Part shown: one piece after another, positions 11,168 through 64,000 of the stretch
Layout of the letters: every line of letters begins with the position of its first letter
Numbering within the stretch: the stretch's first letter is position 1
DNA from: Alphaproteobacteria bacterium
GTDB taxonomy: Bacteria; Pseudomonadota; Alphaproteobacteria; RF32; CAG-239
DNA length: 64,000 bases
Direction of reading: 5' to 3'
NCBI GenBank assembly: GCA_015062535.1
Contig: SUUK01000001.1
Coordinates: 399,055-463,054, forward strand
Program-made: the position numbers and the translations under genes
Notes under the pieces: model-generated
The model's database searches: none
What the model was told of the DNA's origin: nothing
What the model saw: only the letters and a program-made list of their open reading frames with translations

Positions 11168-11243
11168 TGGTGCCGATTGGGAGATTCGAACTCCCGACCT
11201 GCCCATTACGAATGGGATGCTCTACCAACTGAGCTAAATCGGC
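11168..11243 (-). tRNA. tRNA-Thr (anticodon CGU)
   Basis: Reverse complement folds as a cloverleaf: acceptor stem GCCGATT/AATCGGC, D-arm GCTC-AGTTGGTA-GAGC, anticodon loop TTCGTAA, T-arm GGGAG-TTCGAAT-CTCCC, encoded CCA. It is near-identical in architecture to E. coli thrW. Confidence 0.9.
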
Positions 11244-31142: not shown

Positions 31143-31658
31143 ATGGGACAAAAGGTTTCACTTCGGGAATATGCCCGAATGCGTGGAGTTCGGCTTAATG
31201 CAGTTCAGACAGCCGTTAACTCCGGTCGCATACATAAAACGCCTGATGGGAAAATTGATGTGGAGGAAGCCAACAAGGAGTGGTTCATGAACACTGACCC
31301 GGCCAAAAGCAGAAAAGCTGATCCATTATTTGAAACATCTGACGGCGGTGGCATGCCCAAAAACGGGATGTCAAACTTTCAGCAGGCAAAAACGGCAGAC
31401 ATTTATTATCGGGCTATGCTTGCCAAGGCAAAGCTCAAAATGATTACAGGAGAAACAATTGACCGCAAAAAGGCAGGATTACACGCATTCAACCTAGGCA
31501 GATCATTAAGAGATTTGTTCGTTTCGTTTCCAACAAGGTACGGAGCTCTCATTGCGGCGGCATTGGAAACAGACGAACACAAAACGGTGGTGGTGTTAGA
31601 TGAATATATCCGAAAACTCTTATCAGAAAGCAAGGACGTTATCGACCGAGAACTTTGA
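31143..31658 (+). CDS. terminase small subunit
   Basis: N-terminal HTH VSLREYARMRGVRLNAVQTAVNSGRI is typical of small terminases. The gene sits immediately upstream of terL. Confidence 0.65.
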   Translation: MGQKVSLREYARMRGVRLNAVQTAVNSGRIHKTPDGKIDVEEANKEWFMNTDPAKSRKADPLFETSDGGGMPKNGMSNFQQAKTADIYYRAMLAKAKLKMITGETIDRKKAGLHAFNLGRSLRDLFVSFPTRYGALIAAALETDEHKTVVVLDEYIRKLLSESKDVIDREL

Positions 31659-34038: not shown

Positions 34039-35508
34039 ATGACAGACACATCACATAAATCAGCCTCGCACTCTTTACGAGAGATTGCTTCATGGCTCCC
34101 CGGACGTGGGTCGGCGGATAGCGACTTACTTCCGGAATTAAATACAATTGTTGCCCGTTCAAGGGATTTGGCTCGTAACCATGGTGTGGCTTCGGGTGCC
34201 ATGCAAACCTTATCCGATAACATTGTCGGTACAGGGTTTCGCCTGTCGGTTAAGCCGGATTATAAAGCATTAGGCAAAACCAAAGAATGGGAAGAAGAAT
34301 GGCAAGTAAAGGTGGAAGGTCTTTGGCGATCGTGGGCAGAAACATTTAACTGCGATGCCGCCAAGAAGTTAAACTTTCATGGCCTAACGACACAAGTTTT
34401 CAAGTCCTGCCTTATCAATGGCGAGGCTTTAGCTTTGCCGTTATGGTTGAAAGACAGACCTTTTTCAACAGCCATCCAGTTGGTAGAACCTGACAGATTA
34501 TCAAACCCCAACAATGTCAGCGATACCAAAACACTCCGAGGTGGTATTGAAATTGATAAGTATGGAGCACCCATAGCCTATCACATTCAAAAAGACCATC
34601 CGGGCGATTATTGGACAGGAATTGCGTCTTGGGAGTGTATTTCGGCTTTTACTCCTTTTGGCCGAAGACGAGTTCTACACGTTCACGATATCAGCCGAAT
34701 TGGGCAAAATCGTGGAAAGCCTGTCCTAAGTGCCATTATGCCGATGTTCAAAATGCTCGATCATTATGAGCGGTCAGAACTGCAGGCCGCCATTGTGAAT
34801 GCAATGATTGCCGCATTTATTGAAACGCCGATGGATAATGAAGGCTTAAACGAACTGTTCGGTGGTTCAAGCGATGAATACTTGAATGCCAAAAAGGACT
34901 GGCAGGTCAAGTTAGAGGGTGGCTCGATTATTCCGATATTCCCCGGAGATAAGGTCGCCCCATTTACCCCGTCTCGCCCGAACTCGGCATATGGTGCTTT
35001 CGTTGAAAACTTGCTCCGACACATCGGAACCGGATTAAACATTCCGTACGAGTTGCTGTTAAAAGACTTCTCAAAGACAAATTACTCGTCCGCCCGTTCT
35101 GCCTTGTTAGAAGCTTGGCGATATTTCAACGGTCGCCGTCAATGGCTGTCCGATTACTGGGCAACACCGGTTTATGAACTATGGCTAGAAGAAGCCGTTA
35201 ATAAAGGACTGGTTGATGCTCCAGACTTTTATGAAAAACGATACGCATACACAAGATGTAAGTGGATCGGTCCTGGTCGTGGCTGGGTTGATCCGGTTAA
35301 GGAAGCCCAAGCCTGCCAAATCCGAATGGAGATAGGACTTTCAACCTTAGAGGCTGAATGTGCCGGTCAAGGCTTAGACTGGGAAGAAGTTTTAGAACAA
35401 AGAGCAAGAGAAAAAGCCAAACTTGCCGAATTAGGTTTAACATTAGGAGAAAACCATGAAAGGAACATAGAACAGGATGAAGAAAAAGAGGTATCGGGGA
35501 ATATATGA
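34039..35508 (+). CDS. portal protein, lambda gpB family
   Basis: 489 aa located after W, of lambda portal size and composition. Confidence 0.8.
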   Translation: MTDTSHKSASHSLREIASWLPGRGSADSDLLPELNTIVARSRDLARNHGVASGAMQTLSDNIVGTGFRLSVKPDYKALGKTKEWEEEWQVKVEGLWRSWAETFNCDAAKKLNFHGLTTQVFKSCLINGEALALPLWLKDRPFSTAIQLVEPDRLSNPNNVSDTKTLRGGIEIDKYGAPIAYHIQKDHPGDYWTGIASWECISAFTPFGRRRVLHVHDISRIGQNRGKPVLSAIMPMFKMLDHYERSELQAAIVNAMIAAFIETPMDNEGLNELFGGSSDEYLNAKKDWQVKLEGGSIIPIFPGDKVAPFTPSRPNSAYGAFVENLLRHIGTGLNIPYELLLKDFSKTNYSSARSALLEAWRYFNGRRQWLSDYWATPVYELWLEEAVNKGLVDAPDFYEKRYAYTRCKWIGPGRGWVDPVKEAQACQIRMEIGLSTLEAECAGQGLDWEEVLEQRAREKAKLAELGLTLGENHERNIEQDEEKEVSGNI

Positions 35509-35513
35509 TAATT

Positions 35514-36671
35514 CTATAAAGGTTCAACATCCGAAGATAATAGGTCTGTATATTTTTGATAAGTATATATTTGTCCCCATTTTTTTTCGGAATTATTTAC
35601 CAAAATCCCTAAGTCAATTAAATGATTTAAGGATTTTATGACGGTTGGTTTTGTACTTCCTATCATATTGATAATTTCAGAAACGGTAAGCATAGGTTTC
35701 TTTTGAAATGCTGAAAACACTTTCAAAGCAGATTCTGATGCTCGACCGAGAGTTTTTATCTGCTCAACATCTGCTGAAAAGATATTTTGAATATTTATAA
35801 GTGTTTTTTTAGCATCATTTGCCGTTTCAATAACACCTTCTAAAAAGAATTTAATCCAATTTTCCCAGTCTCCATCTTTACGAACACCATTGAGAGCATC
35901 ATAATACAGGGTTCTATTCTTTTTGAAGAATAAACTCAGGTATAAGAAAGGAGAATCCAGCACACCTTTTACACATAAGAAAAATGTAATTAAAAGACGA
36001 CCAAGTCTTCCATTTCCATCAAGAAATGGGTGAATTGTTTCGAACTGTACATGGATAAGAGCAGCTTTGATTAAATTTGGAATATTATCTTCATCATTCA
36101 TAAAAATTTCCAAATCTCCTAAAACAGACATGAGTTTTTCAGGAGGAACAGGCACAAATCGAGCATTACCAGGTCGTGTTCCACCAATCCAATTTTGGGA
36201 TGAACGAAATTCTCCAGGAAGTTTTGTTTTTCCCCTAGAGTTAGTAAGAAGTATTTTATGAATTTCACGAATAAGACGTAACGACAACGGAAATCCTTCT
36301 TTGATGCGTTGCAACCCATGATTTAATGCTGCCACATATGAAGATACTTCTGATGCATCTGCAACAGGAACACCTTGTGTTTGTTCTGATTCATATCTTA
36401 AAAGATCATCCAACGTTGATTGTGTCCCCTCAATTTGTGATGATAATACAGCTTCCTTACGGACATACATATAATTCAGAACAGAAGGATCTATTGTTGC
36501 TTCAACAACACCGTTAAGTTCTCCGATGGATTGATTAGCTTTTTCTAATAAAACAGATACCTCTGATAAATCAATATCAGGTTTTGGTGGTAATGGATTA
36601 GGAATAAAGGCTTGATATGTTTCAGATGTTACTGAGCATTTCACTAAAGTTCCTTGAATATCACGTTTCAT
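35514..36671 (-). CDS. Fic-family protein (class II, N-terminal inhibitory helix), cargo gene
   Basis: Canonical FIC motif HPFLDGNGRLGRLL, inhibitory motif SSQIEGT ([ST]xxxE[GN]) N-terminal, and a C-terminal winged-helix region. It is on the opposite strand between portal and prohead protease and has lower GC. Confidence 0.9.
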   Translation of the reverse strand: MKRDIQGTLVKCSVTSETYQAFIPNPLPPKPDIDLSEVSVLLEKANQSIGELNGVVEATIDPSVLNYMYVRKEAVLSSQIEGTQSTLDDLLRYESEQTQGVPVADASEVSSYVAALNHGLQRIKEGFPLSLRLIREIHKILLTNSRGKTKLPGEFRSSQNWIGGTRPGNARFVPVPPEKLMSVLGDLEIFMNDEDNIPNLIKAALIHVQFETIHPFLDGNGRLGRLLITFFLCVKGVLDSPFLYLSLFFKKNRTLYYDALNGVRKDGDWENWIKFFLEGVIETANDAKKTLINIQNIFSADVEQIKTLGRASESALKVFSAFQKKPMLTVSEIINMIGSTKPTVIKSLNHLIDLGILVNNSEKKWGQIYTYQKYTDLLSSDVEPL

Positions 36672-42391: not shown

Positions 42392-42582
42392 AAACAGTGG
42401 AAGGTTATCAGGCTTGGGAGGTTTTGCTTAAACTTTCTGAGCCTGACTTGAAAACGGCTTTTGAAATTGCTCAAAACCTTGGATTTGACATGGCAATAAT
42501 GACAGAACTCTTACCCACAGCCATACATGGCATGAAAGAAGGAATACATGGGAGCAGCAAAGAAACTATCCATCAGACTTGA
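41858..42582 (+). CDS. tail assembly chaperone G-T fusion made by programmed -1 frameshift (putative)
   Basis: A -1 frame ORF (42208..42582) overlaps the 3' end of G. The A-rich run GCGAAAAAACAAA at 42338-42350 in the overlap is the candidate slippery site. Confidence 0.4.
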
Positions 42583-45166
42583 GGCAGTTGGCGGTGATAA
42601 AGTCCGTCAGGAGTTTAAGTCCATTGGGACGGACGGCACAAAGGCTTTTCGTCAGATTACGAACGTCATTACACCGGCCAATGACAACCTGAAAGTCATA
42701 AATGAAACGGCCAAAACCTTTAATGGCGTACTAAAACAAGCGGCAGGTCTTGCCGGAGCCTACCTCGGTTTACGTGGTTTAACCTCAACATTTAAGTCAA
42801 TTGTCGGAGTTAATGCCGAATTTGAAAGATTATCAGGTTCATTAAAAACTGTGACCGGTTCGGCAAAAGCGGCAAAGGAAGCATTTTCTTTAATTGAAGA
42901 CTTTGCCACATCAACCCCGTATCAACTTGATGAAATCGTTGATAGCTTTATCCGATTAAAGGCGATGGGCTTGGAACCCTCAATGGAAGCCTTAACCTCT
43001 TATGGTAATACGGCATCAGCCTTTGGTAAGAACATCTTGGAGTTTGTTTCTGCCGTAACTTCTGCAACCGTTGGCGAATTTGAAAGACTGAAAACCTTTG
43101 GTATCAAAGCCAAAGTTGAAGGTGAATCAGTTAAGTTCATCTTCCAAGGCGTTACAACAGAAGTGGCTAAAAATGCAACCGAAATCGAACGATATTTGCG
43201 ATCTATCGGAAACATTAACTTCGGTGGAGCTATGGCTGAACAGATGAACACCATGGGCGGAACGATGTCAAACATTGAAGATGCCATGGCAAAAGTTGCC
43301 CGAACCATTGGTGAAAGCGGACTAAATGATGCCATTAAAGGTGTGTTGGAACAATTTAACACGCTTGTATCCGGTTCAAACAGTACCGCAAAATCTATCG
43401 GTGGTGCTTTGGCAACGGCTGTAAATGTAGCAGGCAAAGCCTTTTTTGCTTTGGCCAATAATATCGAACCGATTATCACACTTTTGACCGTTCGGTTGGG
43501 TGCAGCTGCTATCGTCAAAACTTGGACACTTCTTAAAGGTTCAGTTTTAGCTCTGAATGCCGCTCTTCTTGGAACCGGGACAGCTGGAGCTACAGCAACG
43601 CTCGGTCTTCGTATGATGTGGCAGGTTTCAAAACTGGCCGCCGTTCAGATGTATGCAACAACTGTTGCTGCCAATGTTTTGAAAGGTGCATTGGCTCTTC
43701 TTGGTGGTCCTGCCGGCCTTGTTTTAGCACTGGCTTATGGTCTTTATAAGCTCGTGGATAGTCACGATGTGGCAAAGCGTGCCGCCAATGATCATGCCGA
43801 CACATTGCAAAAACTCAAAGATCAAATGGCAGAAACCGTCAAGGAAACTTCGACTTATATGAATACTCTGTCGAAGAACCAAGCCATTGCCGAATGGTCG
43901 CACAAGCTAAAAATCGCAGAAAAGAACGTCAAAGACCTTGAAAAAGAGCTAAAAAACACCGGCGGTATCTCATTTTTCAAACGTCATGCTCCGAACTTTA
44001 TGCTTGATGAATACGAGATTTTTGCAAACGATTTGGCTGAAATCCTCTCTGAATCAAAGTATAACCTTGATGAGTATGAGAAAAAGGTTTGGGAACTGGC
44101 AGCGGAATATCCTGATTTCAAACCACAAGCTGATGCCATTCAAGAAAAGTTGTTGCTCTTAAAGGCGGCTCGACAAGATGCTTGGGATGCCCGAAAGGAA
44201 CTGGAATACATCAACAACCCGGAGCTTCGACCTAAAAAAGAACTGGAACAACAGACCGAGCAACTGCCGACCGTTGACACTTCGGCTTATGAGAAAAACA
44301 TAGAGGACATAAAAAAGAAAGTCTTTGAACTTCAGGAGCCATATGATCAGGCTATGCAAAAAGCGGCCGAATGGCGTGATAATGCTTTGGCGAACCTTGA
44401 CAGCACTAAGGCCGGGTATGAAGATTTCAAGGCTGATGTTAATCGTGTTTATGATGATATGGTCAAAAAAGCAAGTGATGCCGCTTTGAAAAGCTCAACC
44501 AATTGGAAAGACGGTCTCACTCGCAGTTTGCAAAGTTCATATGCAGATGTGACCGATATGGCAAAGGCAACTGAGAACATTGTAAAAAACTCTTTTACCG
44601 CCATGGAGGACACTCTGACCGAGTTCGTCATGACAGGCAAAGCCAGTTTTTCGGATTTTGTTAATTCTATTGTTGAAGGTATGGTCCGGATGGCCATTCA
44701 ATATGCCGTTATCAAACCCATCATGAGTGGGATAATGGGATACTTTGGCGTGCCTATGGCCCATACGGGAGGTGTAATTGGTACGGATACTTTATCTTCT
44801 CGGCAGATTAGTCCTGATGTTTTTGAAGGTGCTCCTCGCTATCATACCGGCGGTTTGGTCGGAGACGAAATCCCGATCATCGCAAAACGTGGAGAAACCG
44901 TCTTCACAAAAGGACAAATGGACGCACTTGGGACCGAGTTAAACTCAAAAAATCCCGTCAATGTCAATGTTAATGTTCACAATAACGCATCAGGCACAAA
45001 GGCTTCAGCATCTGCAAATAAAGATGCTCAAGGCAACGTGTCTATTGATGTGATTGTTGAGCAAATAGAAAGCACAATTGGTAAAAACATATCTAAAGGC
45101 GAAGGTTTATCGCCGATTTTAGAACAACGTTATGCCCTTAATCCGGCATTTGGGAGTTATCGATGA
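42548..45166 (+). CDS. tail tape measure protein
   Basis: 872 aa, Ala/Gly-rich and helical, with a central hydrophobic segment. Confidence 0.85.
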   Translation: MGAAKKLSIRLEAVGGDKVRQEFKSIGTDGTKAFRQITNVITPANDNLKVINETAKTFNGVLKQAAGLAGAYLGLRGLTSTFKSIVGVNAEFERLSGSLKTVTGSAKAAKEAFSLIEDFATSTPYQLDEIVDSFIRLKAMGLEPSMEALTSYGNTASAFGKNILEFVSAVTSATVGEFERLKTFGIKAKVEGESVKFIFQGVTTEVAKNATEIERYLRSIGNINFGGAMAEQMNTMGGTMSNIEDAMAKVARTIGESGLNDAIKGVLEQFNTLVSGSNSTAKSIGGALATAVNVAGKAFFALANNIEPIITLLTVRLGAAAIVKTWTLLKGSVLALNAALLGTGTAGATATLGLRMMWQVSKLAAVQMYATTVAANVLKGALALLGGPAGLVLALAYGLYKLVDSHDVAKRAANDHADTLQKLKDQMAETVKETSTYMNTLSKNQAIAEWSHKLKIAEKNVKDLEKELKNTGGISFFKRHAPNFMLDEYEIFANDLAEILSESKYNLDEYEKKVWELAAEYPDFKPQADAIQEKLLLLKAARQDAWDARKELEYINNPELRPKKELEQQTEQLPTVDTSAYEKNIEDIKKKVFELQEPYDQAMQKAAEWRDNALANLDSTKAGYEDFKADVNRVYDDMVKKASDAALKSSTNWKDGLTRSLQSSYADVTDMAKATENIVKNSFTAMEDTLTEFVMTGKASFSDFVNSIVEGMVRMAIQYAVIKPIMSGIMGYFGVPMAHTGGVIGTDTLSSRQISPDVFEGAPRYHTGGLVGDEIPIIAKRGETVFTKGQMDALGTELNSKNPVNVNVNVHNNASGTKASASANKDAQGNVSIDVIVEQIESTIGKNISKGEGLSPILEQRYALNPAFGSYR

Positions 45167-51623: not shown

Positions 51624-53846
51624 ATGGTTTATTTTAATTATCTAACAAATCCGTTTAATCCAAACAAGGGACGGATAAGCAAAGCCTTGCCCGGAAAACA
51701 AACCGTTTTGCAAATTGTTAAAGAGCAAAAAATAGATTTAACCCGACCAACTGTCTGTTTGGTTGATGGTGTGGCAAAACTCAGAAAAGACTGGAACATA
51801 ACCCTACATCAAAAAGCTGTGGTTAGTTTTGTCGCTCTGCCGCTGGGTGGCGGTGGTAAAAGCTCAAACCCATTACAGGTTGTCCTGACGGTGGCTTTGA
51901 TTGTGGCAACTGTTTATACTGGTGGTGCGGTGGGAGCCGCTTATGGTGCCGTTTGGGGCGGTGTTGCTGCGGCGGCCGTTTCGGTCGGAGGTGGTATTTT
52001 GATTAATACCTTTGTGCCTACACCAAAAGCATCGCTTAATGGAATGACAACCTCAAGCCTAACCCAAAGCCCAACCTATTCTTTACAGGCTCAAGGTAAT
52101 CAGGCACGTCTTGGTAATCCCATTCCGGTTATTTATGGTCGGCACCTGATTTATCCGGATTTTGCCAGTCAGCCATATTATAAATACATTGATAACGAGC
52201 AATTTGTGTATCAACTCCATTGTTTGGGTCAAGGTGAATACAATGTCGAACAGATTCGTATTGAGGACACGCCGATTAGCTCATTCGAAGAAATAACCTA
52301 TCAAATCATTCCACCCGGAGGTAAAAACACGCTTTTTGAAGAAGATGTAGTGACTTCCAACGAAGTGGCCGGTCAGGAACTGTTAAAGGATACCATTTGT
52401 GGTCCGTTTGTGTTAAACCCGACCGAAAGTGTTATCAATAAAATTGAAATTGATGTAGCTTTTCAACGGGGTTGTTATTACGCAAACGACAATGGCACCA
52501 TGGCCAATAAAACCATTCAGTGGCGTATTGATGCCAGACGGATTGATGATGAAGATAAAGCGCTGGGTGATTGGGTTACTCTTGGAACGGAAAGTATTAC
52601 AAGCAATAACCACAATGCAATGTATAAAACCTATACTTATTCGGTTACAACCGGCAGATATGAGGTCAGAGCTACTCGGTTAGATGCCAAAGACACATCT
52701 TCACGTGCCGGTCATGAAATCCGGTGGGGTTCGGCCAAGGGCTATATCGTGTCAGATAAAGACTATGGAAACGTGACATTGCTTGCCATTACGATGCGAG
52801 CCACCGATAACTTGTCACAGCGTTCATCCCGTATGGTGAACTGCATTGTTACGAGGAAACTTCCGACATGGTCACCAAGTGGAGGATGGACGGCTCCGGT
52901 TGCAACCCGTTCGGTGGCTTGGGTATTAGCTGATATATTAAGAGCATCATACGGTGCCGGACTTGCCGATAAATCAATAGATCTGCAGGCTCTTTATAAC
53001 TTGGATCAGACGTGGAACAGCCGAGGCGATACCTTTAACGGCGTGTTTGATAGCAAACTGACGGTTTATGAAGCCTTATCCCGAACAGCCCGAGTTGGGC
53101 GAGCTATTCCTTTTATTCAAGGTGGTATCGTTCGTTTCGTCCGGGACGAGCCGAAAAACATACCGGTGGCACTCTTTGGACCACGAAATATTGTAAAAAA
53201 CAGCCTATCTATACAATATGTGATGCCTTCCGAGGATACCGCCGACAGCGTTTGCGTTCAGTATTTTTCGGAAAAGACTTGGAAAACGTCAGAAATAGTC
53301 GGTTCGTTTGACGGCTCAACATCCGATAAAACAGCCACCGTAGAATTGTTCGGCTGTACAAACAAAGACCAAGCTTTAAGAGAAGCAACTTATATGGCGT
53401 TGGCCAACCGATACCGAAGACGTATTGTTAATTTTACAACGGAACTGGAAGGACTGGTTCCGAGTTATGGGGATTTAATCGCCATTACTCATGATATGGC
53501 CAAATGGGGTCAAGGCGGTGAAGTGACAGAGCAAAACGGATTAACTCTAAGCCTGTCCGAACCGGTCAAGTTTGAAGAAGGTCAAACACATTATTTGGCA
53601 TTACGAAAGAAAAACGGGTCTTTATCCGGTCCGTATGTTGTGACTGCCGGTTCACTTCCGACAGAGGTTATCTTATCGGAAGAACCGGACATTGAGATCT
53701 TAACAGGCACAGATGCAGAACGAACGCATTTTGCCTTTGGAACCGCCGATAAATGGAGTGTACTTGCACGTGTAACGGGCATACATCCACGCTCCACCAA
53801 GGTAGAAATAACAGCGGTTATTGAAGATAGCCGAGTACATCAATAG
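51624..53846 (+). CDS. tail tip / host-specificity protein, fused gpI-like N-terminus + gpJ-like central fibre
   Basis: N-terminal region carries a Gly-rich hydrophobic segment (PLGGGGKSSNPL..GGAVGAAYGAVWGGVAAAAV) like lambda I. The rest is J-like. At 740 aa it is much shorter than lambda J. Confidence 0.55.
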   Translation: MVYFNYLTNPFNPNKGRISKALPGKQTVLQIVKEQKIDLTRPTVCLVDGVAKLRKDWNITLHQKAVVSFVALPLGGGGKSSNPLQVVLTVALIVATVYTGGAVGAAYGAVWGGVAAAAVSVGGGILINTFVPTPKASLNGMTTSSLTQSPTYSLQAQGNQARLGNPIPVIYGRHLIYPDFASQPYYKYIDNEQFVYQLHCLGQGEYNVEQIRIEDTPISSFEEITYQIIPPGGKNTLFEEDVVTSNEVAGQELLKDTICGPFVLNPTESVINKIEIDVAFQRGCYYANDNGTMANKTIQWRIDARRIDDEDKALGDWVTLGTESITSNNHNAMYKTYTYSVTTGRYEVRATRLDAKDTSSRAGHEIRWGSAKGYIVSDKDYGNVTLLAITMRATDNLSQRSSRMVNCIVTRKLPTWSPSGGWTAPVATRSVAWVLADILRASYGAGLADKSIDLQALYNLDQTWNSRGDTFNGVFDSKLTVYEALSRTARVGRAIPFIQGGIVRFVRDEPKNIPVALFGPRNIVKNSLSIQYVMPSEDTADSVCVQYFSEKTWKTSEIVGSFDGSTSDKTATVELFGCTNKDQALREATYMALANRYRRRIVNFTTELEGLVPSYGDLIAITHDMAKWGQGGEVTEQNGLTLSLSEPVKFEEGQTHYLALRKKNGSLSGPYVVTAGSLPTEVILSEEPDIEILTGTDAERTHFAFGTADKWSVLARVTGIHPRSTKVEITAVIEDSRVHQ

Positions 53847-55090: not shown

Positions 55091-55363
55091 ATGAACAAAA
55101 CTGAATACGTTGCTGCTGTTGCTGAAGCTGCAGGAATGACAAAAGCTCAAGCTGCTATTGCAGTTGATGCATCAATTGCCGTAATCACAAAAGCCTTGAA
55201 AAAAGGTGAACCTGTTCAAATCACTGGTTTTGGTACATTTGAAGTAGCAAAACGTGCTGCTCGTACAGGTCGCAACCCTGCAACAGGTAAAGAAATCAAA
55301 ATCAAAGCTTCAAAAGCACCTAAATTCAAAGCAGGTGCTGTTTTGAAGAAAGCCGTAAACTAA
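55091..55363 (+). CDS. hupB: HU-family DNA-binding protein (host)
   Basis: MNKTEYVAAVAE..GFGTFEVAKRAARTGRNPATGKEIKI is HU-like. The gene has its own TTGACT promoter and RBS AAAGGAG. The ORF-track start at 55019 is rejected. Confidence 0.85.
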   Translation: MNKTEYVAAVAEAAGMTKAQAAIAVDASIAVITKALKKGEPVQITGFGTFEVAKRAARTGRNPATGKEIKIKASKAPKFKAGAVLKKAVN

Positions 55364-55430: not shown

Positions 55431-56384
55431 TTACAACAGGTCATTTAATAAATTCATACATTTAATTTTTTGTTGCATATTGGCTCGGCCATATACATTT
55501 AATGTGAAAGATACATTTTTATGACCCAAAATTTCGGATAGAGATTTAACATCAAACTCCGGGATTTCTATGGCTCGAACTGCGAAAGTATGCCGAATTT
55601 CATGAAACTTAACACTACGCAGTTTGTTTTTTTTGAGGAAACGAGCAAAAAACTGTCTGTATGTTCTTGGCTCTGTTGGTTTGGTTTTCCCTGTTAAAAA
55701 ATATTGATTAGGGTTATCAGAATAATATTTCTTTATTATATTTATCAAAAGCGATGGAAGAGGAATAGTTCGGCACGAACTTGCTGTTTTAGGTGCTCCA
55801 ATGTAAACATAAGAAGTTCCTTTTACTTTATCATAAATTCGCTGAACAGTTCTTTGAATTGTTATGGTCTTATCAATAATAGAGATGTCTCGCATTTGTA
55901 AACCACACAGCTCACCAATCCGAACGCCAGTAAATAACGCAACTAAAATACCTGCAGTACGGCGGTTCATTTTCATGTAGATGGACTGTATAAGAGCCAA
56001 TTCTTCATCTTTTGATAAAGAAATCACTTTTTTTATTCCCAAATCTTTAGGGTATTCAATTAGGTCCCAATTTAGCATAGGAATAACTTGTTCTTTATAT
56101 GCAAAAATAAGGCATAAGCGTAAGACAAGTATAATATCTCGAATTGTTTTTACTGTTAAGCCTCCTTTTTTATCAAGCCTACCTTCATTATAAAGCGTAT
56201 TGATATAACATTGTATATCAGCTTCGGTGATGCTTAATATTTTCTTTTTACCCATTGATGGAATCAAATGGTTTTCAGAAATTAAAACAAAGTTAGCATA
56301 AGTCGATGGTGTAATCATCGGTTGCTTTTGTGTTAACCATGTTTTTACTAAAGTTTTAAATTGGGTATTTTGAGTTATTTTCAT
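55431..56384 (-). CDS. tyrosine site-specific recombinase (candidate hsdS invertase)
   Basis: 317 aa with the HEIRHTFAVRAIE (HxxR) box and a C-terminal catalytic Tyr (NVYGRA). It is adjacent to the inverted hsdS cassettes and is AT-rich like the host. Confidence 0.85.
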   Translation of the reverse strand: MKITQNTQFKTLVKTWLTQKQPMITPSTYANFVLISENHLIPSMGKKKILSITEADIQCYINTLYNEGRLDKKGGLTVKTIRDIILVLRLCLIFAYKEQVIPMLNWDLIEYPKDLGIKKVISLSKDEELALIQSIYMKMNRRTAGILVALFTGVRIGELCGLQMRDISIIDKTITIQRTVQRIYDKVKGTSYVYIGAPKTASSCRTIPLPSLLINIIKKYYSDNPNQYFLTGKTKPTEPRTYRQFFARFLKKNKLRSVKFHEIRHTFAVRAIEIPEFDVKSLSEILGHKNVSFTLNVYGRANMQQKIKCMNLLNDLL

Positions 56385-56489
56385 TTTATTTATCTCCTTT
56401 GAAAAATGTTAATACCGGAGATTATTTTGCACGAAATAGCCGAAAATTAGGATTTTGGGAGCAAAAATATTAACCGCAACAGCCATGAA

Positions 56490-57700
56490 AGAGGGAAAAA
56501 TGCTCCTCCTTTAATGGTCTTGAGCCGTCTCTTCGTTTTAGAAATTTTGTAGATGATTGGGAAGAGAGTAAACTTTCATCTTTCTTTAAAAAATGCTTGG
56601 AAAAAAATAAAAATGGTCTCGTTGATAATGTTATTTGCAATTCTGCAAAAAATGGATTAATGCCTCAGCGAGATTTCTTTGACAAAGATATTGCCAACAC
56701 AGAAAATACAAACGGCTATTATATTATCCAAGAAAATGATTTTGTATATAATCCTCGTAAATCCAACGAAGCACCATATGGACCAATAAGCATATATAAA
56801 TACAAAGAAAAAGGAATTGTTTCACCTCTTTATCTTTGTTTTAGAGCCACAACAGAAATTCACCCTAGATATTTTGAAATGTATTTTAAATCTTCTGTTT
56901 GGCATAATTACATTTACTTTGCAGGAGACAGCGGTGCTCGTCATGACAGGGTAAGCATTAAAGATGATGTTTTTTTTGAAATGCCAATAAACATCCCATC
57001 TCTTCCTGAGCAACAAAAAATAGCCAACTTTCTCTCACTCGTTGACCAACGTATCGAAAAACAGCGACAACTGGTCGAAGCCCTAAAGAAGTATAAAAGA
57101 GGGTTGTTTTTGAAGCTTTATAATGAAGCTGATAAAAACATAATATTGTTTAAAAATATCTATGATATTGCATCTGAAGGTGGCACTCCTTCAACATTAG
57201 ATCCTGAGAATTACGAGAATGGAAAACTTCCATTTATTAAAATAGATGACCTAAATCAGCATTATTTAACTGCCGCAAAATATTTTATTACTGAAAAGGG
57301 ATTAAAAAAATCTAGTGCATGGATTGTTCCTGAAAATAGTATCATTTATTCAAATGGGGCAACTATTGGAGCTTGTTCTATTAATAAAATGCCTGTAACC
57401 ACAAAACAAGGAATTTTAGGTATTGTACCAAAGAGTAATTTTTCTGTGGAATTTCTTTACTTCTATTTTACATCAAGCCTTTTTAAGGAAAAAATAAGAG
57501 CAATCACAACTAAAGGAACCATGGATTGTGCTTATTTAAAAGATATAAATAACATAAAAATAAATATTCCCAATTTCATAATTCAACAAAAAATAGCAAA
57601 AGTTATGGTGAATTTTGAAAATTTAATAGAACGAACCGAGTTCGCACTTATATCCTTACAAAATATTAAAAAAGCACTTTTACAGAAAATGTTTATATAA
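56490..57700 (+). CDS. silent hsdS cassette A' (two TRDs; no ATG start, frame opens at 56490)
   Basis: HsdS-like with an N-terminal NGLEPSLRF motif, central EQQKIANFLSLVDQRIEKQRQLVEALKKYKRGL and C-terminal LLQKMFI. The first in-frame start is a TTG at 56597. Confidence 0.75.
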
Positions 57701-58805
57701 ACATTTGTTGCAAGAAGGCATTTTTCATATCAAGCAAAGATTCCTCCATAATTTGTTCATTTTTTATTTTTTGTTCAATACTATCTAAGAAAAATGAAAG
57801 TTTTTCTTGGAATTCAATAGATGGAACTGGAATGGAATGACGTGCAACATCACTTCTTATTATTTGGGGCTGAGCAGAACCTGAGACAAGATATTTCAAG
57901 TTTTGATTAGATAAACAGTGATATAAATAACGTTTATTTATTTTATTTTGTTCATCGATATTTACAACCATAGAGTTTCCTGTAATCCACGTGTAAGCAT
58001 CTACAAAGTTTACTGTTCCACATTTTTCCCCTCGGCAACTAATTGTTACTTGAGGTGTTTCATGATTGTATTGATCATAATTACCAATATATCCATTTGC
58101 TCCAAAAACCTTATATTCCCCATCGTTAAATTGAGATTGTGATATTGTAGATGGTTGGTAAATTTTTGCAAATTCGCCGAGACGAACTATTTTATAGCTT
58201 TCATTTTTTTGAAAATAATAAGAAAACAAACCTCTTTTATACTTCTTTAAGCTCTCGACCAGTTGTCGCTGTTTTTCGATACGTTGGTCAACGAGTGAGA
58301 GGAAGTTGGCTATTTTTTGTTGCTCGGGAAGAGATGGATAACCAACCTTGTAGTCCATAATAAAATTTTTATCTCCTCTGGGCATCTTACATCCCTTAGC
58401 CGCACCCATTACATAGTCAATAAATTTGTCATTGGCTATTATATACTTCAAGAATAACGAATTTTGTTTATTGGTATGTATGACAAGTACGTCTGTGCTT
58501 GCGGCTCCATCGAAAGTTGCATACCAAACTTTGCGTAGATACGGGCGAATATTAGCAAGAAGTATATCATTTTTTTCAAATTTTACCCCAGAAACTACTG
58601 TTTCATCGACGTATTGTTCTATTCCTTGGAAATTTTGTAGCATATTTTCAGTACTAATAAAATGCCTCTTATTAACGGATGTACGCTTATTACCATATGA
58701 AGCCAAGTCTTTTAATGGCGAAATATTCCATGCATTTAAATACGCCTTAAATCTTAGTCGTGGATAAGCTTCAAGACCATTAAAAGAGGAGAAAATAATC
58801 CCCAA
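57693..58805 (-). CDS. silent hsdS cassette B' (two TRDs)
   Basis: HsdS-like. Its 3' end overlaps cassette A' through the palindrome ATGTTTATATAAACAT. It has no ATG and sits head-to-head with C'. Confidence 0.75.
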   Translation of the reverse strand: MGIIFSSFNGLEAYPRLRFKAYLNAWNISPLKDLASYGNKRTSVNKRHFISTENMLQNFQGIEQYVDETVVSGVKFEKNDILLANIRPYLRKVWYATFDGAASTDVLVIHTNKQNSLFLKYIIANDKFIDYVMGAAKGCKMPRGDKNFIMDYKVGYPSLPEQQKIANFLSLVDQRIEKQRQLVESLKKYKRGLFSYYFQKNESYKIVRLGEFAKIYQPSTISQSQFNDGEYKVFGANGYIGNYDQYNHETPQVTISCRGEKCGTVNFVDAYTWITGNSMVVNIDEQNKINKRYLYHCLSNQNLKYLVSGSAQPQIIRSDVARHSIPVPSIEFQEKLSFFLDSIEQKIKNEQIMEESLLDMKNAFLQQMFI

Positions 58806-59968
58806 TTAATGGTCTTGAGCCGAAACTAAGATTCCCTAATTTTATAGAAAAATGGACACGATTTGAAGCTGAGAATATATTTAAAAATATTACAGACAAA
58901 AATCATCCCACAGATACAGTTCTTACCATTCAACAAGGAAGAGGAACTCTACCAAGAGATTTATCAGGTCGAAATATTTTATATGATAACACAAATACTA
59001 AAAATTATAAAAGAGTTCAATTTGGAGATTTTATTATTCATTTACGTTCTTTTGAAGGCGGATTGGAAATGGCTAATGAACAAGGTATTGTTAGCCCAGC
59101 ATACACTATTTTAAGATACATCAAGCCCATTGCATTTGGTTTTTATAAAGCTTATTTTAGGACAAATGAATTTATAAATCATATATTAAGTAAGTCTGTT
59201 GAAGGAATTAGGGATGGCAAACAAATCAGCTATGATGCGTTTAAATGGTTAGCTATTCCATATTGTCAATTAGAAGAACAACAAAAGATTGCTGATTTCC
59301 TTTCGCTCGTTGATCAACGCATCGAAAAACAGCGGCAGTTGGTCGAGAGCTTAAAGAAGTATAAAAGAGGGTTGTTTTTGAAGCTTTATGGTAGTTTTGA
59401 AAAAAAAAGCTACAAAATAAGCGAGTTAGGAAAATATTGTGCCACAGGTACATTATCAAAAGACGATATTGATGTTTCTGGAGTGTATCAATGCATTTTA
59501 TATGGGGAACTTTTCACAAAATATGGAGAAACAATCCGTCAGGTTATCAGTCGGACTAATGTCACTCCAACTTACTTAAGTAGCACTAACGAAATTTTAT
59601 TTCCATCTTCAACCACAGCCGATGCCTTGTCACTAATATTTCCATCATCGTTAAAAATAGAAAATATATTCCTCGGAGGGGATTTATTTACAATTAAACT
59701 TAAAAATGAATTTGACAGCGATTTTATAAGTTATTTAATAAATTTTGTGTATAAAAATACTTTTGCCCGTTATGCCCAAGGAATTACAATTATTCATTTA
59801 CACTACACGGATATCAAAGAACAAATAATCGATATACCGGATATAGTTGTTCAGCTTAAGATATCGGATATAATGAAAAAAATTGAAGCCATAATTGAAA
59901 ATAATGACAATGAATTAAACTCACTATTACTTATGAAAAAAAGTTTTTTGCAACAAATGTTTATATAA
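58799..59968 (+). CDS. silent hsdS cassette C' (two TRDs; no start codon for the first 88 codons)
   Basis: The frame opens with NGLEPKLRFPNF. The central repeat is at 59273-59390 and the C-terminal FLQQMFI palindrome is shared with the expressed hsdS. Confidence 0.75.
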   Translation, partial: SPINGLEPKLRFPNFIEKWTRFEAENIFKNITDKNHPTDTVLTIQQGRGTLPRDLSGRNILYDNTNTKNYKRVQFGDFIIHLRSFEGGLEMANEQGIVSPAYTILRYIKPIAFGFYKAYFRTNEFINHILSKSVEGIRDGKQISYDAFKWLAIPYCQLEEQQKIADFLSLVDQRIEKQRQLVESLKKYKRGLFLKLYGSFEKKSYKISELGKYCATGTLSKDDIDVSGVYQCILYGELFTKYGETIRQVISRTNVTPTYLSSTNEILFPSSTTADALSLIFPSSLKIENIFLGGDLFTIKLKNEFDSDFISYLINFVYKNTFARYAQGITIIHLHYTDIKEQIIDIPDIVVQLKISDIMKKIEAIIENNDNELNSLLLMKKSFLQQMFI

Positions 59969-61217
59969 ACATCTGCTGCAATAATCCTTTTTTACATTTT
60001 TCTAGTGTGTCCAAATATTTATTATGTTGGTCAACATAACTATCAACTTTTCTTAATACTTTTGATATTATTAATTGTTCATCATAACAAGGTACAAAAA
60101 TTTTTGTAGGCTCTAGAATTGAAATATAAGAACGTTGGTGACTTTGCGGCATAAGGTTGAGTGAAAGAAGTAAATTGTACATAAAATATAAATCATTAAA
60201 ATTTTTGCACGTTAACATTTTTATAGTAGATGACTTAACCTTAAAACTAAAATCAACAAATTTAAAATCCATCGTAAAATCATCATATATTATAGTTTCA
60301 CCTTTAGAGTACACTCCTGTCTCCTCATTTGTGTACCCTAGTATAAATGCTTTATTTGCAGTTAGTACTGGTGTTTTATATTCATCATTGTAATTTTCGG
60401 AAAAAACAATATATTTCTGTGGTTGTTCATAATTAAGAACATCCGCCACAGTTTTTAATTCCCAATCGGGAAAATTATTTCCATTATCATCTTTAAATCT
60501 GATTTTTCTATCAAAAATAGCGGATAACAACCCTCTTTTATACTTCTTTAGGGCTTCGACCAGTTGTCGCTGTTTTTCGATACATTGGTCAACGAGCGAA
60601 AGGAAATCAGCAATCTTTTGTTGTTCATTTATATCTGAACTTAAAAAATGTGTGGTAGCAAAAAAATCATCTGTTGGAACATTAAGGAGACCATGGTTTC
60701 TTGCTCCTTCTGCCGAAATAACATAGATTTGACGATACCATTTTAATGAATCAAAATAGTGCTTAATATAATCAGAACAATGTTTTTTCAGAGAAAAACA
60801 AATATAGAGAGTGGATAATGCCCCCATTTCGTATCGTTCTAATCTTTTTATTGATCCAAAATCATAACCATTAGAATAACTTTTATTATATGCAAATTCT
60901 CCATTTTTTAGAAGGTAATAACCGGACATATCTTTGCTTGATACTTTTTTATTAAAGAATGTAACTTGATCAACTAAACCATCTTTGGAAGATATTGTTA
61001 AAGGCAATTCTGTTTCATTGTTGCTATTTTTTCGCATAATTCTTGAAGTGAAGTCTGATAGTTTTTCCTGCATCCAAGGATGAGTGAACTTTCGAAATCT
61101 TAATAAAGGAAACTTCGGTTCAAGACCATTACTTGAGGATACATTTTCGGAAAAAAAAGAAGAATTTTGCGTATCTTGATTTTCGCCATTTGGCACTTTA
61201 TTTTCGATATTTTCCAT
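59961..61217 (-). CDS. hsdS: Type I restriction-modification specificity subunit (expressed copy)
   Basis: ATG with GAGGAG RBS lies 3 nt after the hsdM stop. It has two TRDs flanking the conserved central repeat. Confidence 0.85.
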   Translation of the reverse strand: MENIENKVPNGENQDTQNSSFFSENVSSSNGLEPKFPLLRFRKFTHPWMQEKLSDFTSRIMRKNSNNETELPLTISSKDGLVDQVTFFNKKVSSKDMSGYYLLKNGEFAYNKSYSNGYDFGSIKRLERYEMGALSTLYICFSLKKHCSDYIKHYFDSLKWYRQIYVISAEGARNHGLLNVPTDDFFATTHFLSSDINEQQKIADFLSLVDQCIEKQRQLVEALKKYKRGLLSAIFDRKIRFKDDNGNNFPDWELKTVADVLNYEQPQKYIVFSENYNDEYKTPVLTANKAFILGYTNEETGVYSKGETIIYDDFTMDFKFVDFSFKVKSSTIKMLTCKNFNDLYFMYNLLLSLNLMPQSHQRSYISILEPTKIFVPCYDEQLIISKVLRKVDSYVDQHNKYLDTLEKCKKGLLQQMFI

Positions 61218-61220
61218 GGC

Positions 61221-62795
61221 TTAATTCTCCTCAGCGAATGGGAAATCCAAACCCAATTCATCAAAGTATGGTTTTAATTGTGCATTGATATCTTTTATTT
61301 CTGCTTGAAGGTTTTTGATTTCTCCAAAAACAGCATTTAAGTCAATTTCTTCTTCTTTTTCAAATGTATCAACATATCTTGGAATGTTTAAATTGAAGCC
61401 ATTTTCTGCGATTTCTTCCATTGTTGCAACGTGGGCATACTTTTCAACATCTTCACGTTTTACGTAGGTTTCCACAATTTTATCGATATCGCATTCTCTT
61501 AAAATGTTTTGATTTTTACCGGATTCATACTCTTTAGATGCATCAATAAATAAAATATTATTTGCGTTAGCATTGCGGTTTTTCTTTAATACGAGCACGC
61601 ATACAGGGATACCTGTTCCAAAGAACAAGTTAGCAGGCAAACCGATAACAGCATCCAAAATGTTCAATTTTTCAATTAAATATTTGCGAATTGTTTCTTC
61701 AGATGAGCCACGGAAAAGAACACCATGAGGAAGAAGAACAGCAATACGACCATCTTCGTCCATGTGATGAACCATGTGTTGCACAAATGCAAAGTCAGCC
61801 TTACTCTTTGGAGCAAGTTTGCCATATTCGTTAAAACGTTCATCTTCCATAAACTTCTCATCAGCTGACCAGTTTGCGGAATATGGAGGATTAGCAACCT
61901 GAACACGATATTTTCTATCTTTGGCTTTTTCTTCAAAATAGTCATGTTCTAAAGTGTCACCATTATAAATTTCAAAGTTGCTGTAGGGGATACCACGCAA
62001 AATCATGTTCATTCTTGCGAGGTTGTATGTTGTAGAGGTTAACTCTTGGCCGTAGTAATTACGGACATTAACATATTTTTTCAAACGCAATAACAGAGAA
62101 CCGGAACCACACGTTGGGTCTGCAGCAGCTTTTACATCTGTCAAACCATGACATGATAAACGGCAAAGCAATTCTGCCGGTGCTGCCGGCGTATAGAATT
62201 CACCAGCTTTTTTACCTGCAGTTGCAGCAAATTGACCAATTAAGTATTCATAAGCATTACCTAAAACGTCAATACGAGTATCTTCAAAGCTGAACTCAAT
62301 TTCATCTAAAGAGGAAATAATTTTTGCCATAACCGTAGAACGGTCTTTTACAGTATGTCCCAGTTTAGTTGAATCTAATTGCATATCAGAGAATAAACCT
62401 TCAAAATGCTCTTGGGAGGCATTGCCGATTGTAGATTCCATTAAAGAGTTGATAGCTTTTTGAAGAAATTCAATATCGAAAGAACGGTTTTCAACCATTT
62501 CCACCATTTTACGGAACAAATACTGTGGTTCGATAACAAAGCCCAAATCACGCAGAGATTCTTCAATAACGGCTTCTTTATATTCCGGATCATTCCAAGC
62601 GTTTTCATAAGAAATGCCATCATCTTTCAAGATTTTGTTCATATACTTTTCTGTGCGGTCAGAAAGGTAATAATAGAATATCATACCCAAAATGTAGTTT
62701 TTAAACTCATAGGCTTCCATGTTTCCACGCAATGCGTTGGCCATAGACCACAACTTATTACATAATTCTTTTTGATGGGCTTGAATATTATCCAT
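61221..62795 (-). CDS. hsdM: Type I restriction-modification methyltransferase subunit
   Basis: Contains the NPPY motif (VANPPYSANW), an AdoMet-binding region, and the HsdM N-terminal domain. Length is 524 aa. Confidence 0.9.
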   Translation of the reverse strand: MDNIQAHQKELCNKLWSMANALRGNMEAYEFKNYILGMIFYYYLSDRTEKYMNKILKDDGISYENAWNDPEYKEAVIEESLRDLGFVIEPQYLFRKMVEMVENRSFDIEFLQKAINSLMESTIGNASQEHFEGLFSDMQLDSTKLGHTVKDRSTVMAKIISSLDEIEFSFEDTRIDVLGNAYEYLIGQFAATAGKKAGEFYTPAAPAELLCRLSCHGLTDVKAAADPTCGSGSLLLRLKKYVNVRNYYGQELTSTTYNLARMNMILRGIPYSNFEIYNGDTLEHDYFEEKAKDRKYRVQVANPPYSANWSADEKFMEDERFNEYGKLAPKSKADFAFVQHMVHHMDEDGRIAVLLPHGVLFRGSSEETIRKYLIEKLNILDAVIGLPANLFFGTGIPVCVLVLKKNRNANANNILFIDASKEYESGKNQNILRECDIDKIVETYVKREDVEKYAHVATMEEIAENGFNLNIPRYVDTFEKEEEIDLNAVFGEIKNLQAEIKDINAQLKPYFDELGLDFPFAEEN

Positions 62796-62810
62796 AATTT
62801 AAATCCTTTC

Positions 62811-64000
62811 TTATTGAAATTTCTCTGCTAAGTTTTTAATGAAATCAACGATGCGTGCAACTAACGACTTTTTCTTTAATAAAGACATCGGTGCCTTAAT
62901 TTTATCACGAATATCGCCGGCGTTGATTACTCCGGAGAACTCATATTCTGAGATTACGTCGCTCAACATTTTGGCATCAACATCCTCTTTTTGAGCGAAC
63001 TCTTGAATTTCTCTGTTTTTCTCGGCATTTTCAAAGTCATTGTAAGCGGCATCAATTTCATCAGCATTATTTAAGCCTCTGACCACTTTGTCCAAGAATG
63101 CTTGTAACAATTCAACTTTACGCATGAGTAATGGATTATCTGCACGAGCCAATTCTTCTTCAATGTGCTTGATATCGTAGTCTTTTTGCTCAGGATCATC
63201 AAAGTGAATGTTTTTAATAAGGTTCATAATATAGGCGACATTAATACGGTTGCTTTCCATTAATTCAATACAGAAATCAACATCATTCAGTACGGAAACA
63301 ACTTCTCTTTGTTTCATGTGTCTATGATAGAGCATCAAATATTTGCTTTTATAATCCTGATACTCTTGGTCGCCCATTTCTAAATCTTCGTTGTCGAAGC
63401 TAAACTCAATAAATGTTCGTAATGAGTTGAGGTATTTGGTCAACTCTCTAAATAAAAGAACGAATTTTAACTGGTCATCTTCACTTTGTAGCGTATCAAT
63501 AGATGATGGCTCCAAAGCGATTTCTCTTATTTTTCGGACAATTTCGTTATATTTTTCTTCAAAATATTTGTATCCAGGGGTTAAAACACCATCGCTTTGA
63601 CCTTGTGAGAATAACGCTATTGCATCGTCTGTCCGTTTTTTTAGGTTGCGGTAACAGATAATAATACCGAATGGCTTTGTTTCTTTTTCAACTCGGTTTG
63701 TACGTGAATATGCCTGTAATAAATCATGGTATCTTAGGTCTTTATCAACATATAATACCGATAGAGGTTTACTGTCAAAGCCGGTTAGGAACATATTTAC
63801 GACAAGCAAAATATCCAACGATTTTGTTTTCTTTCCTTTTACCCGATCGGAAATATCCTTGTGATATGCGTGGAAGGTGTCGGTTGAAAAATTTGTGGAA
63901 TAAATGTCATTATAATCCTTGATAATATTTTCTAAGGCATCTCGGCTGTGTTGGTCGGTTCCTTCGGCATCTTCATTTTGGCCGAAAGAAAAAATACCAC
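62811..64000 (-). CDS. hsdR: Type I restriction endonuclease subunit, C-terminal part (gene continues beyond window end)
   Basis: C-terminal helicase-2/DUF3387-like region of HsdR. The reading frame stays open to position 64000. Confidence 0.8.
   Translation of the reverse strand, partial: GIFSFGQNEDAEGTDQHSRDALENIIKDYNDIYSTNFSTDTFHAYHKDISDRVKGKKTKSLDILLVVNMFLTGFDSKPLSVLYVDKDLRYHDLLQAYSRTNRVEKETKPFGIIICYRNLKKRTDDAIALFSQGQSDGVLTPGYKYFEEKYNEIVRKIREIALEPSSIDTLQSEDDQLKFVLLFRELTKYLNSLRTFIEFSFDNEDLEMGDQEYQDYKSKYLMLYHRHMKQREVVSVLNDVDFCIELMESNRINVAYIMNLIKNIHFDDPEQKDYDIKHIEEELARADNPLLMRKVELLQAFLDKVVRGLNNADEIDAAYNDFENAEKNREIQEFAQKEDVDAKMLSDVISEYEFSGVINAGDIRDKIKAPMSLLKKKSLVARIVDFIKNLAEKFQ

Follow-up and report, generated by a model that had tools for sequence, protein, structure and literature searches.

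Alternative arrangements of a four-cassette Type I restriction-modification array beside a tyrosine recombinase in a gut Alphaproteobacteria lineage

What purpose do three additional full-length specificity (hsdS) genes serve downstream of a Type I restriction-modification (R-M) operon that already has one? Positions 55431-64000 of a 64,000-nt stretch of Alphaproteobacteria DNA (hereafter the window; GCA_015062535.1, contig SUUK01000001.1; G+C content 37%) hold hsdR, truncated by the end of the window, hsdM, four hsdS frames, all full-length and alternating in orientation (+,-,+,-), and a gene for a tyrosine recombinase. An earlier interpretation made from the letters alone (the sequence-only reading) had proposed that the hsdS genes are cassettes shuffled by inversion at intragenic repeats, and this is now borne out by alternative arrangements of the same array on metagenome contigs of the same clone, with crossovers in two of the three repeat classes that it had named. 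It is very probable that the locus is an inverting, multi-cassette Type I R-M system (an epigenetic inverton, or phase-variable hsdS array), with the adjacent tyrosine recombinase as the most likely catalyst.

Gene identities were assigned by matches to Pfam and NCBIfam profiles (Table 1). The hsdR gene is complete in an identical locus (L001), where it encodes a 920-aa protein with HSDR_N, ResIII and DEAD domains. The Methylase_S profile matches two stretches each in cassettes A, B and C and one in D, and all four frames share an NGLE region, a central EQQKIA...KRGL region and a C-terminal QQMFI region, while no two of their eight target recognition domains (TRDs) exceed 34% identity. The presence of HsdM, of HsdR in the same operon and of HsdS proteins with two TRDs and conserved helical separators places the locus among the Type I R-M systems. 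The coordinates first given for B, C and D stand, and the start of A, set at 56490 and hence one base out of frame, is corrected to 56489.

In the proposed mechanism, hsdR, hsdM and hsdS would be expressed as one operon, and translation would be restricted to whichever hsdS gene is positioned behind a fixed 28-codon leader, the three other full-length genes lying downstream so as to form two convergent pairs. The sequence around the start codons is consistent with this layout. Only hsdS D, which begins 3 nt past the hsdM stop codon, has an ATG preceded by a GAGGAG Shine-Dalgarno sequence, located 9 nt upstream and inside the 3' end of hsdM, as expected from the sequence-only reading of one expressed hsdS coupled to hsdM. 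The same reading had described the remaining frames as lacking start codons, which is true of A and C up to codons 36 and 88, respectively, and not of B, which opens with TTG as its first codon and lacks a Shine-Dalgarno sequence.

Two classes of repeats are present in all four genes. The first, here termed the N core, is the 12-mer TAATGGTCTTGA, which is invariant in the four hsdS genes (at 56512 and 58807 on the forward strand and at 58771 and 61120 on the reverse strand) and for which about 0.01 matches would be expected by chance in the window. The N-terminal repeat initially reported, TTAATGGTCTTG, lies one base from the coordinates first given for it: it is exact at 56511, at 58806 and, as its reverse complement, at 58772, and the copy in D is identical at just 11 of 12 positions. 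The gap in the B/C inverted repeat, put at 21 bp, is in fact 22 nt for TTAATGGTCTTG and 24 nt between the invariant cores. The second class, the central repeats, was correctly recognized from the start; these repeats span 102-115 nt, are 86-94% complementary and contain at their 3' end an invariant 18-bp block, AAAGAAGTATAAAAGAGG. The reverse-complemented N site and the central block agree at 18 of 25 positions, a score reached by 6 of 2000 shuffles. This likeness recalls the pneumococcus, where the recombinase PsrA requires sequences resembling IR1 within its longer repeats (PMC7096588).

Evidence that the array moves comes from metagenome contigs selected for an identical HsdM and an identical recombinase, onto which the eight TRDs, the leader, hsdM and the recombinase gene were mapped. 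Four arrangements of the array occur among these contigs. The form seen in the window recurs in L001 and L004 and in some 16 places like them. Inversion of everything between the outermost N cores has brought cassette A behind the leader in L003; L002 differs from L003 only in that the 24-nt spacer separating the core of B from that of C is flipped, and hence also carries A at the expression site; and in L009 TRD2-A and TRD2-B are swapped. The recombinant loci (L002, L003 and L009) all retain four open hsdS frames. The flanks of the array (11.7 kb and 2.7 kb) contain no mismatches between arrangements, with a total of about 19 kb free of mismatches, and the array of L003 is the exact reverse complement of that of the window over 4620 bp. 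These arrangements are therefore rearrangements of a single clone, rather than the arrays of different strains.

The alternative arrangements also locate the crossovers. In exchanges at the N site, the leader, the recombinase-side context and both sides of the spacer stay in place, and everything downstream of TAATGGTCTTGA is swapped. In L009, the exchange of TRD2-A and TRD2-B is limited to the 18 bp of AAAGAAGTATAAAAGAGG, and a 47-bp identical stretch lying just upstream is left unused. Two contigs, L005 and L006, extend up to and including the final base of the core at the expression site (61120-61131) and stop there; given that this 12-bp core is far shorter than any assembly k-mer, this indicates that the read graph branches at the exact position of the core. 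Parental and recombinant forms coexist within a single JGI sample (3300024303), in which L004 contains the parental cenB|T2B junction in its interior and the recombinant cenB|T2A junction at its end, and L011 opens with the reciprocal junction, cenA|T2B. A crossover site of 12 bp is too short for homologous recombination. The confinement of the crossovers to 12 and 18 bp hence points to site-specific, rather than homologous, exchange.

Related strains and species show the same combinatorial pattern. A scan of metagenome contigs for the leader followed by the core retrieved 18 loci with hsdM genes 74-97% identical to that of the window, and in these loci the same leader is joined to at least 10 different TRD1 sequences. 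TRD1-B (99% identical) lies behind the leader in a close relative (L036), as does TRD1-C (99.3% identical) in L039 and L047. One sister species presents four or five different TRD1/TRD2 pairings at the expression site; the switch between TRDs always falls within the block shared with the window, and TRD1 is in every case accompanied by the 5' portion of the central repeat.

Taken together, the two classes of site suggest a simple process for the generation of specificities. Inversion between opposed copies of TAATGGTCTTGA, at the NGLE motif, would exchange both TRDs of the expressed gene, and inversion between opposed copies of AAAGAAGTATAAAAGAGG, at the end of the central coiled-coil repeat, would exchange TRD2 only, so that successive inversions could bring any of the 4 x 4 TRD combinations into the expression site. 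In a model of the array that records the positions of the four TRD1, of the four TRD2 and the orientation of the spacer, every one of the 16 combinations is reached by breadth-first search in three inversions or fewer with the N and central sites only. Since the eight TRDs are so dissimilar, each combination is expected to methylate and restrict a different bipartite motif, and the pay-off of switching could lie in defence bet-hedging, in epigenetic regulation or in both.

A third repeat class had been proposed as a further inversion site. It consists of a 16-nt palindrome, ATGTTTATATAAACAT, which is indeed exact at 57689 and 59957, where the convergent genes end in MFI-stop on both strands. 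As a recombination site it was rejected: no recombination at the palindrome is apparent in any of the four observed arrangements, none of which needs it, and its addition to the breadth-first search, which reaches all 16 combinations without it, contributes no further expressed combination. The copy behind the expressed hsdS forms a 15-pair stem followed by a T run (RNA fold of -24.8 kcal/mol, z of -6.8). A better reading of the element is that convergent genes overlap here at their ends, which would keep both frames closed after any inversion and would provide a terminator-like hairpin that remains valid in every arrangement.

The recombinase gene, which the sequence-only reading had correctly placed at the edge of the array, lies 105 bp from cassette A, and its product has the catalytic-type residues that an active enzyme of this family should contain (R155, H261/R264/H265, H288 and Y298). 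Its adjacency to an hsdS array is maintained in L015, L017-L021, L023 and L053, and homologues flanking such arrays are 84-95% identical in gut Alphaproteobacteria, 70% identical in metagenome-assembled genomes (MAGs) of Lachnospiraceae type and 37% identical in Phocaeicola. A search for homologues on plasmids, aimed at placing the recombinase in a named invertase clade, returned mostly matches of 28-37% identity in unannotated or unrelated contexts, among which only the Phocaeicola locus (L053) was informative. In several genomes a contig starts right at the recombinase gene, as would be expected if the array breaks assemblies.

Several observations weigh against the proposed switching mechanism. 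About 18 of the 23 contigs with this hsdM present the window arrangement, which may reflect either infrequent switching or the favouring of one form. The 16 specificities put forward by the sequence-only reading are a reachable maximum, and only D-D and A-A have been seen at the expression site of this clone; a search of database proteins with the expressed HsdS returned D in its silent form (P0001) together with half-matches that are 84-96% identical, with no 100%-identical chimera and neither D/C nor D/A among them. The evidence for switching consists of assembled metagenome contigs, the spacer flip of L002 has no simple explanation as an inversion in cis, and the recombinase scores far under every NCBIfam cut-off, that of the tyrosine-type DNA invertase model included. 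The predominance of a single arrangement in most assemblies, together with the derivation of all the evidence from short-read metagenome assemblies, in which repeats are prone to misjoining, could be taken to indicate that the arrangements are fixed strain differences or assembly artefacts and that the silent cassettes are relics. Such an explanation is highly improbable in the face of some 19 kb with zero mismatches between arrangements, of contig ends that coincide precisely with the final core base and of a sample that holds both parental and recombinant junctions. The 12-bp core and the 48-bp module formed by the B and C cores and their spacer are, moreover, far below the final k-mer of the assemblies (k141 in the contig names), so their junctions are spanned by real k-mers, and neither the four open frames with eight intact TRDs nor the combinatorial TRD pairs at the expression site of the sister species fit an array of relics.

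The identity of the catalyst is a separate question. The array might invert through RecA-type recombination or through an invertase encoded elsewhere, the adjacent recombinase being part of the neighbouring prophage or of some other element. Its gene sits between the array and one end of that prophage, and in L015, L018 and L019, too, it is followed by phage genes for lysis and tail proteins; the protein matches PHROG integrase families, and no curated invertase model is matched above its cut-off. In the pneumococcus, inversions of spnIII between some long repeats have been documented to proceed without any known recombinase (PMC6620402), and the HvsR invertase of Mycoplasma pulmonis works from a distance (PMC7672463). 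Yet the neighbouring prophage carries its own large serine integrase at the opposite end, the adjacency between recombinase and hsdS is also found without neighbouring phage genes (L017, L020, L021 and L053), and the crossovers fall in the 12-bp core and the 18-bp block while sparing the adjacent 47 bp of identity, which homology-driven exchange would not do. A different catalyst thus appears improbable, and catalysis by the adjacent tyrosine recombinase remains the preferred explanation for the inversions.

The 48-bp module between cassettes B and C, TCAAGACCATTA-AAAGAGGAGAAAATAATCCCCAAT-TAATGGTCTTGA, stands apart from the rest of the array. It is 100% identical in L015 and L034-L051 despite hsdM identities of 74-97%, and is more conserved than any coding part of the related arrays. 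A decayed version of the module, which has lost its outer core, is found at the recombinase-proximal junction, where the same 48 positions also hold a GAGGG-N5-ATG sequence that opens a 4-codon frame with its stop inside the core. The spacer is inverted in L002 (13936-13959) relative to L003 (13936-13959) on contigs otherwise identical over about 19 kb. A single exchange would suffice for this change if it took place between the two cores, just 24 nt from each other; long inversions could bring it about only in a series of six or more. Steric constraints make it implausible that a tyrosine recombinase would act in cis over 24 bp, and the flip may instead reflect a double intermolecular exchange or template switching mediated by a hairpin. 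In addition, conservation between species is much higher in some TRDs than in hsdM. At 99.3% identity, TRD1-C recurs in L034 (5548-5988), L042 (9035-9475), L044 (10580-11020) and L047 (846-1286), where hsdM is 83-88% identical to that of the window, which suggests transfer of specificity cassettes from one species to another or unusual constraint on them. The flip between L002 and L003 prompts the speculation that the recombinase can flip the module itself, and the module may also, or instead, serve as a docking site for TRDs from other species, the array then capturing cassettes in an integron-like manner through a non-canonical (intermolecular or hairpin-mediated) reaction on sites 24 bp apart; on present evidence this is rather unlikely.

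Table 1. Coordinates of the R-M locus, its repeats and the neighbouring prophage genes in the window
Feature	Coordinates	Strand	Remarks
Tyrosine recombinase, 317 aa, candidate invertase	55431-56384	-	Phage_integrase 3.5e-21; Phage_int_SAM_3
Recombinase-proximal junction, decayed 48-bp module, outer core lost	56476-56523	+	35/48 positions match
hsdS cassette A, silent (TRD1-A + TRD2-A)	56489-57700	+	Open frame; Methylase_S 1.3e-32
N core of cassette A, active	56512-56523	+	Crossover site in L002 and L003
Central crossover block AAAGAAGTATAAAAGAGG, cassette A	57085-57102	+	Within central repeat 56996-57120; L009, L004 and L011 crossovers
Tail palindrome A/B	57689-57704		Overlapping stop codons, MFI-stop on both strands; hairpin z -2.7 to -3.8
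hsdS cassette B, silent (TRD1-B + TRD2-B)	57693-58805	-	Open frame; Pfam Methylase_S
Central crossover block, cassette B	58231-58248	-
48-bp module: N core of B	58771-58782	-
48-bp module: 24-nt spacer	58783-58806
48-bp module: N core of C	58807-58818	+
hsdS cassette C, silent (TRD1-C + TRD2-C)	58799-59968	+	Open frame; Pfam Methylase_S
Central crossover block, cassette C	59353-59370	+
Tail palindrome C/D	59948-59981 (core 59957-59972)	-	Hairpin and U-run after expressed hsdS
hsdS D, expressed, 418 codons (28-codon leader, TRD1-D, TRD2-D)	59961-61217	-	Pfam Methylase_S; ATG
Central crossover block, cassette D	60532-60549	-
N core at expression site, leader/TRD1 junction	61120-61131	-	Whole-array inversion crossover site
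hsdM	61221-62795	-	N6_Mtase 2.5e-103; HsdM_N; TIGR00497 hsdM, 435 bits vs cut-off 243
hsdR, C-terminal 395 codons, runs past window	62811-64000	-	EcoR124_C and T1R_D3-like matches
Prophage large serine integrase	21711-23411		Far end of prophage
Prophage ParB-fused DNA methyltransferase	27261-28529		Possible anti-restriction function
Prophage terminase	31600-33543
Prophage portal	34039-35508
Prophage tape measure protein	42548-45166
Prophage tail protein	51624-53846
Prophage putative lysis genes, then HU gene	HU 55091-55363

The surroundings of the locus contain several further elements. A complete-looking prophage (approximately 21300-55400) abuts the recombinase gene, and homologues of its lysis and tail genes likewise follow the recombinase in the three related loci named above. 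The recombinase was considered as the integrase of this prophage and rejected in that role, on account of the serine integrase encoded at 21711-23411 and of the persistence of the linkage to hsdS where phage genes are absent. Between the portal and head-protease genes, on the opposite strand, lies a Fic/DOC-family gene with a helix-turn-helix domain (35514-36671, -), which may be a moron or toxin cargo. The sole tRNA gene in the window, a tRNA-Thr (CGT) at 11168-11243 (-), is about 10 kb to the left of the prophage and, given that distance, is probably not its attachment site. On the other side of the R-M operon, beyond the window, a gene for a WYL/WCX-domain regulator is found directly upstream of hsdR and on the same strand in all identical loci (L001, 6117-7064), and may control the operon.

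The nearest genomes are MAGs recovered from the gut of humans, sheep and buffalo that bear the labels Candidatus Enterousia, 'Azospirillum sp. 51_20' and Alphaproteobacteria, and on this similarity the host is taken to be an uncultured gut alphaproteobacterium related to the Candidatus Enterousia MAGs. Among the relatives that represent species, most have two hsdS genes and one has three; four-cassette arrays like that of the window are seen in two metagenome loci, L042 and L044. Because most relatives carry the two-gene form, the array of the window is read as a tandem doubling of this common unit. With this locus, the known range of inverting Type I R-M arrays comes to include an uncultured gut lineage of the Alphaproteobacteria, and its four full-length cassettes would allow 16 specificities, twice the eight shown for Bacteroides fragilis. 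It also illustrates that public metagenome assemblies can by themselves demonstrate switching and resolve crossovers to 12 and 18 bp, an approach of use for organisms that cannot be cultured. Studies of phage-host interactions and of methylomes in the gut should accordingly treat strains of this lineage as mixtures of restriction types.

The locus does not reveal a new principle, belonging as it does to an already well-described class. All the features by which sequence can assign a locus to the inverting Type I class are found here: two or more hsdS genes, some of them opposed, intragenic repeats that keep the frame, an adjacent invertase homologue and, in metagenome assemblies, inversions on a clonal background. 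The novelty claimed for the array by the sequence-only reading was overstated, since multi-hsdS inverting loci with an invertase have already been catalogued, and hundreds are known (PMC7672463; PMC7641763; PMC7394358). Duplicated hsdS genes with inverted repeats occur in approximately 6% of the Type I systems in REBASE (PMC7394358), and the hundreds of loci that bear an invertase, which fall into six clades (PsrA, TvrR, BfiA, EfiA, MfiA and HvsR), are distributed over 16 phyla and mostly belong to host-associated bacteria (PMC7672463). A limited literature search for arrays with 16 variants or with four full-length genes turned up the B. fragilis locus and a paper on Moraxella, and no array with 16 variants was found described, which is weak evidence of novelty.

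Among the closest known systems are the two-hsdS loci of Listeria monocytogenes, Streptococcus suis, Actinobacillus pleuropneumoniae and Enterococcus faecalis, which likewise have repeats before the 5' TRD and between the TRDs, and in which each pair of genes yields four alleles (PMC7394358); L017, L018 and L020, from close relatives of the host, have exactly this two-gene form with the same recombinase as the window. The survey that described them applied a repeat threshold of 20 bp, below which the 12-bp N repeat of the window falls (PMC7394358). The SpnD39III/cod (ivr) locus of Streptococcus pneumoniae, with PsrA/CreX, resembles the window in combining one expressed hsdS with silent donors, and yields 6 variants (PMC4190663; PMC7096588). 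It also pairs a very short 5' repeat (the 15-bp IR1, against the 12-bp core here) with longer internal repeats in which a sequence like the short site is contained (PMC7096588). In SpnD39III, however, psrA lies inside the array and the donors are partial genes, whereas in the window the recombinase is outside and the donors are full-length. The R64-type shufflon varies the C-terminal part of one expressed protein by means of the Rci tyrosine recombinase and many short sfx sites in both orientations, which together yield many arrangements. Its likeness to the window lies in the use of one recombinase with many short sites, the target being pilV in one case and hsdS in the other.

A close parallel in layout is provided by Bfa9343I of the gut commensal B. 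fragilis NCTC 9343 (BF1839-1842 and bfiA), whose four hsdS, two of them half genes, generate 8 variants with an invertase encoded outside the array (PMC7672463; PMC7641763). As in the window, hsdR and hsdM are followed by four hsdS and then by the external tyrosine recombinase, with a single expression site behind hsdM and short intragenic inverted repeats (16-47 bp in B. fragilis), and the same layout recurs in the Bacteroidales locus of Phocaeicola, L053, with the recombinase 37% identical to that of the window. The two systems differ in the composition of the array. Two full and two half hsdS genes give B. fragilis six TRDs and four dissimilar inverted repeats, whereas the window has four full-length genes, eight TRDs and 16 possible variants, uses two classes of site that are present in all genes, and carries between its gene pairs a conserved 48-bp core-spacer-core module.

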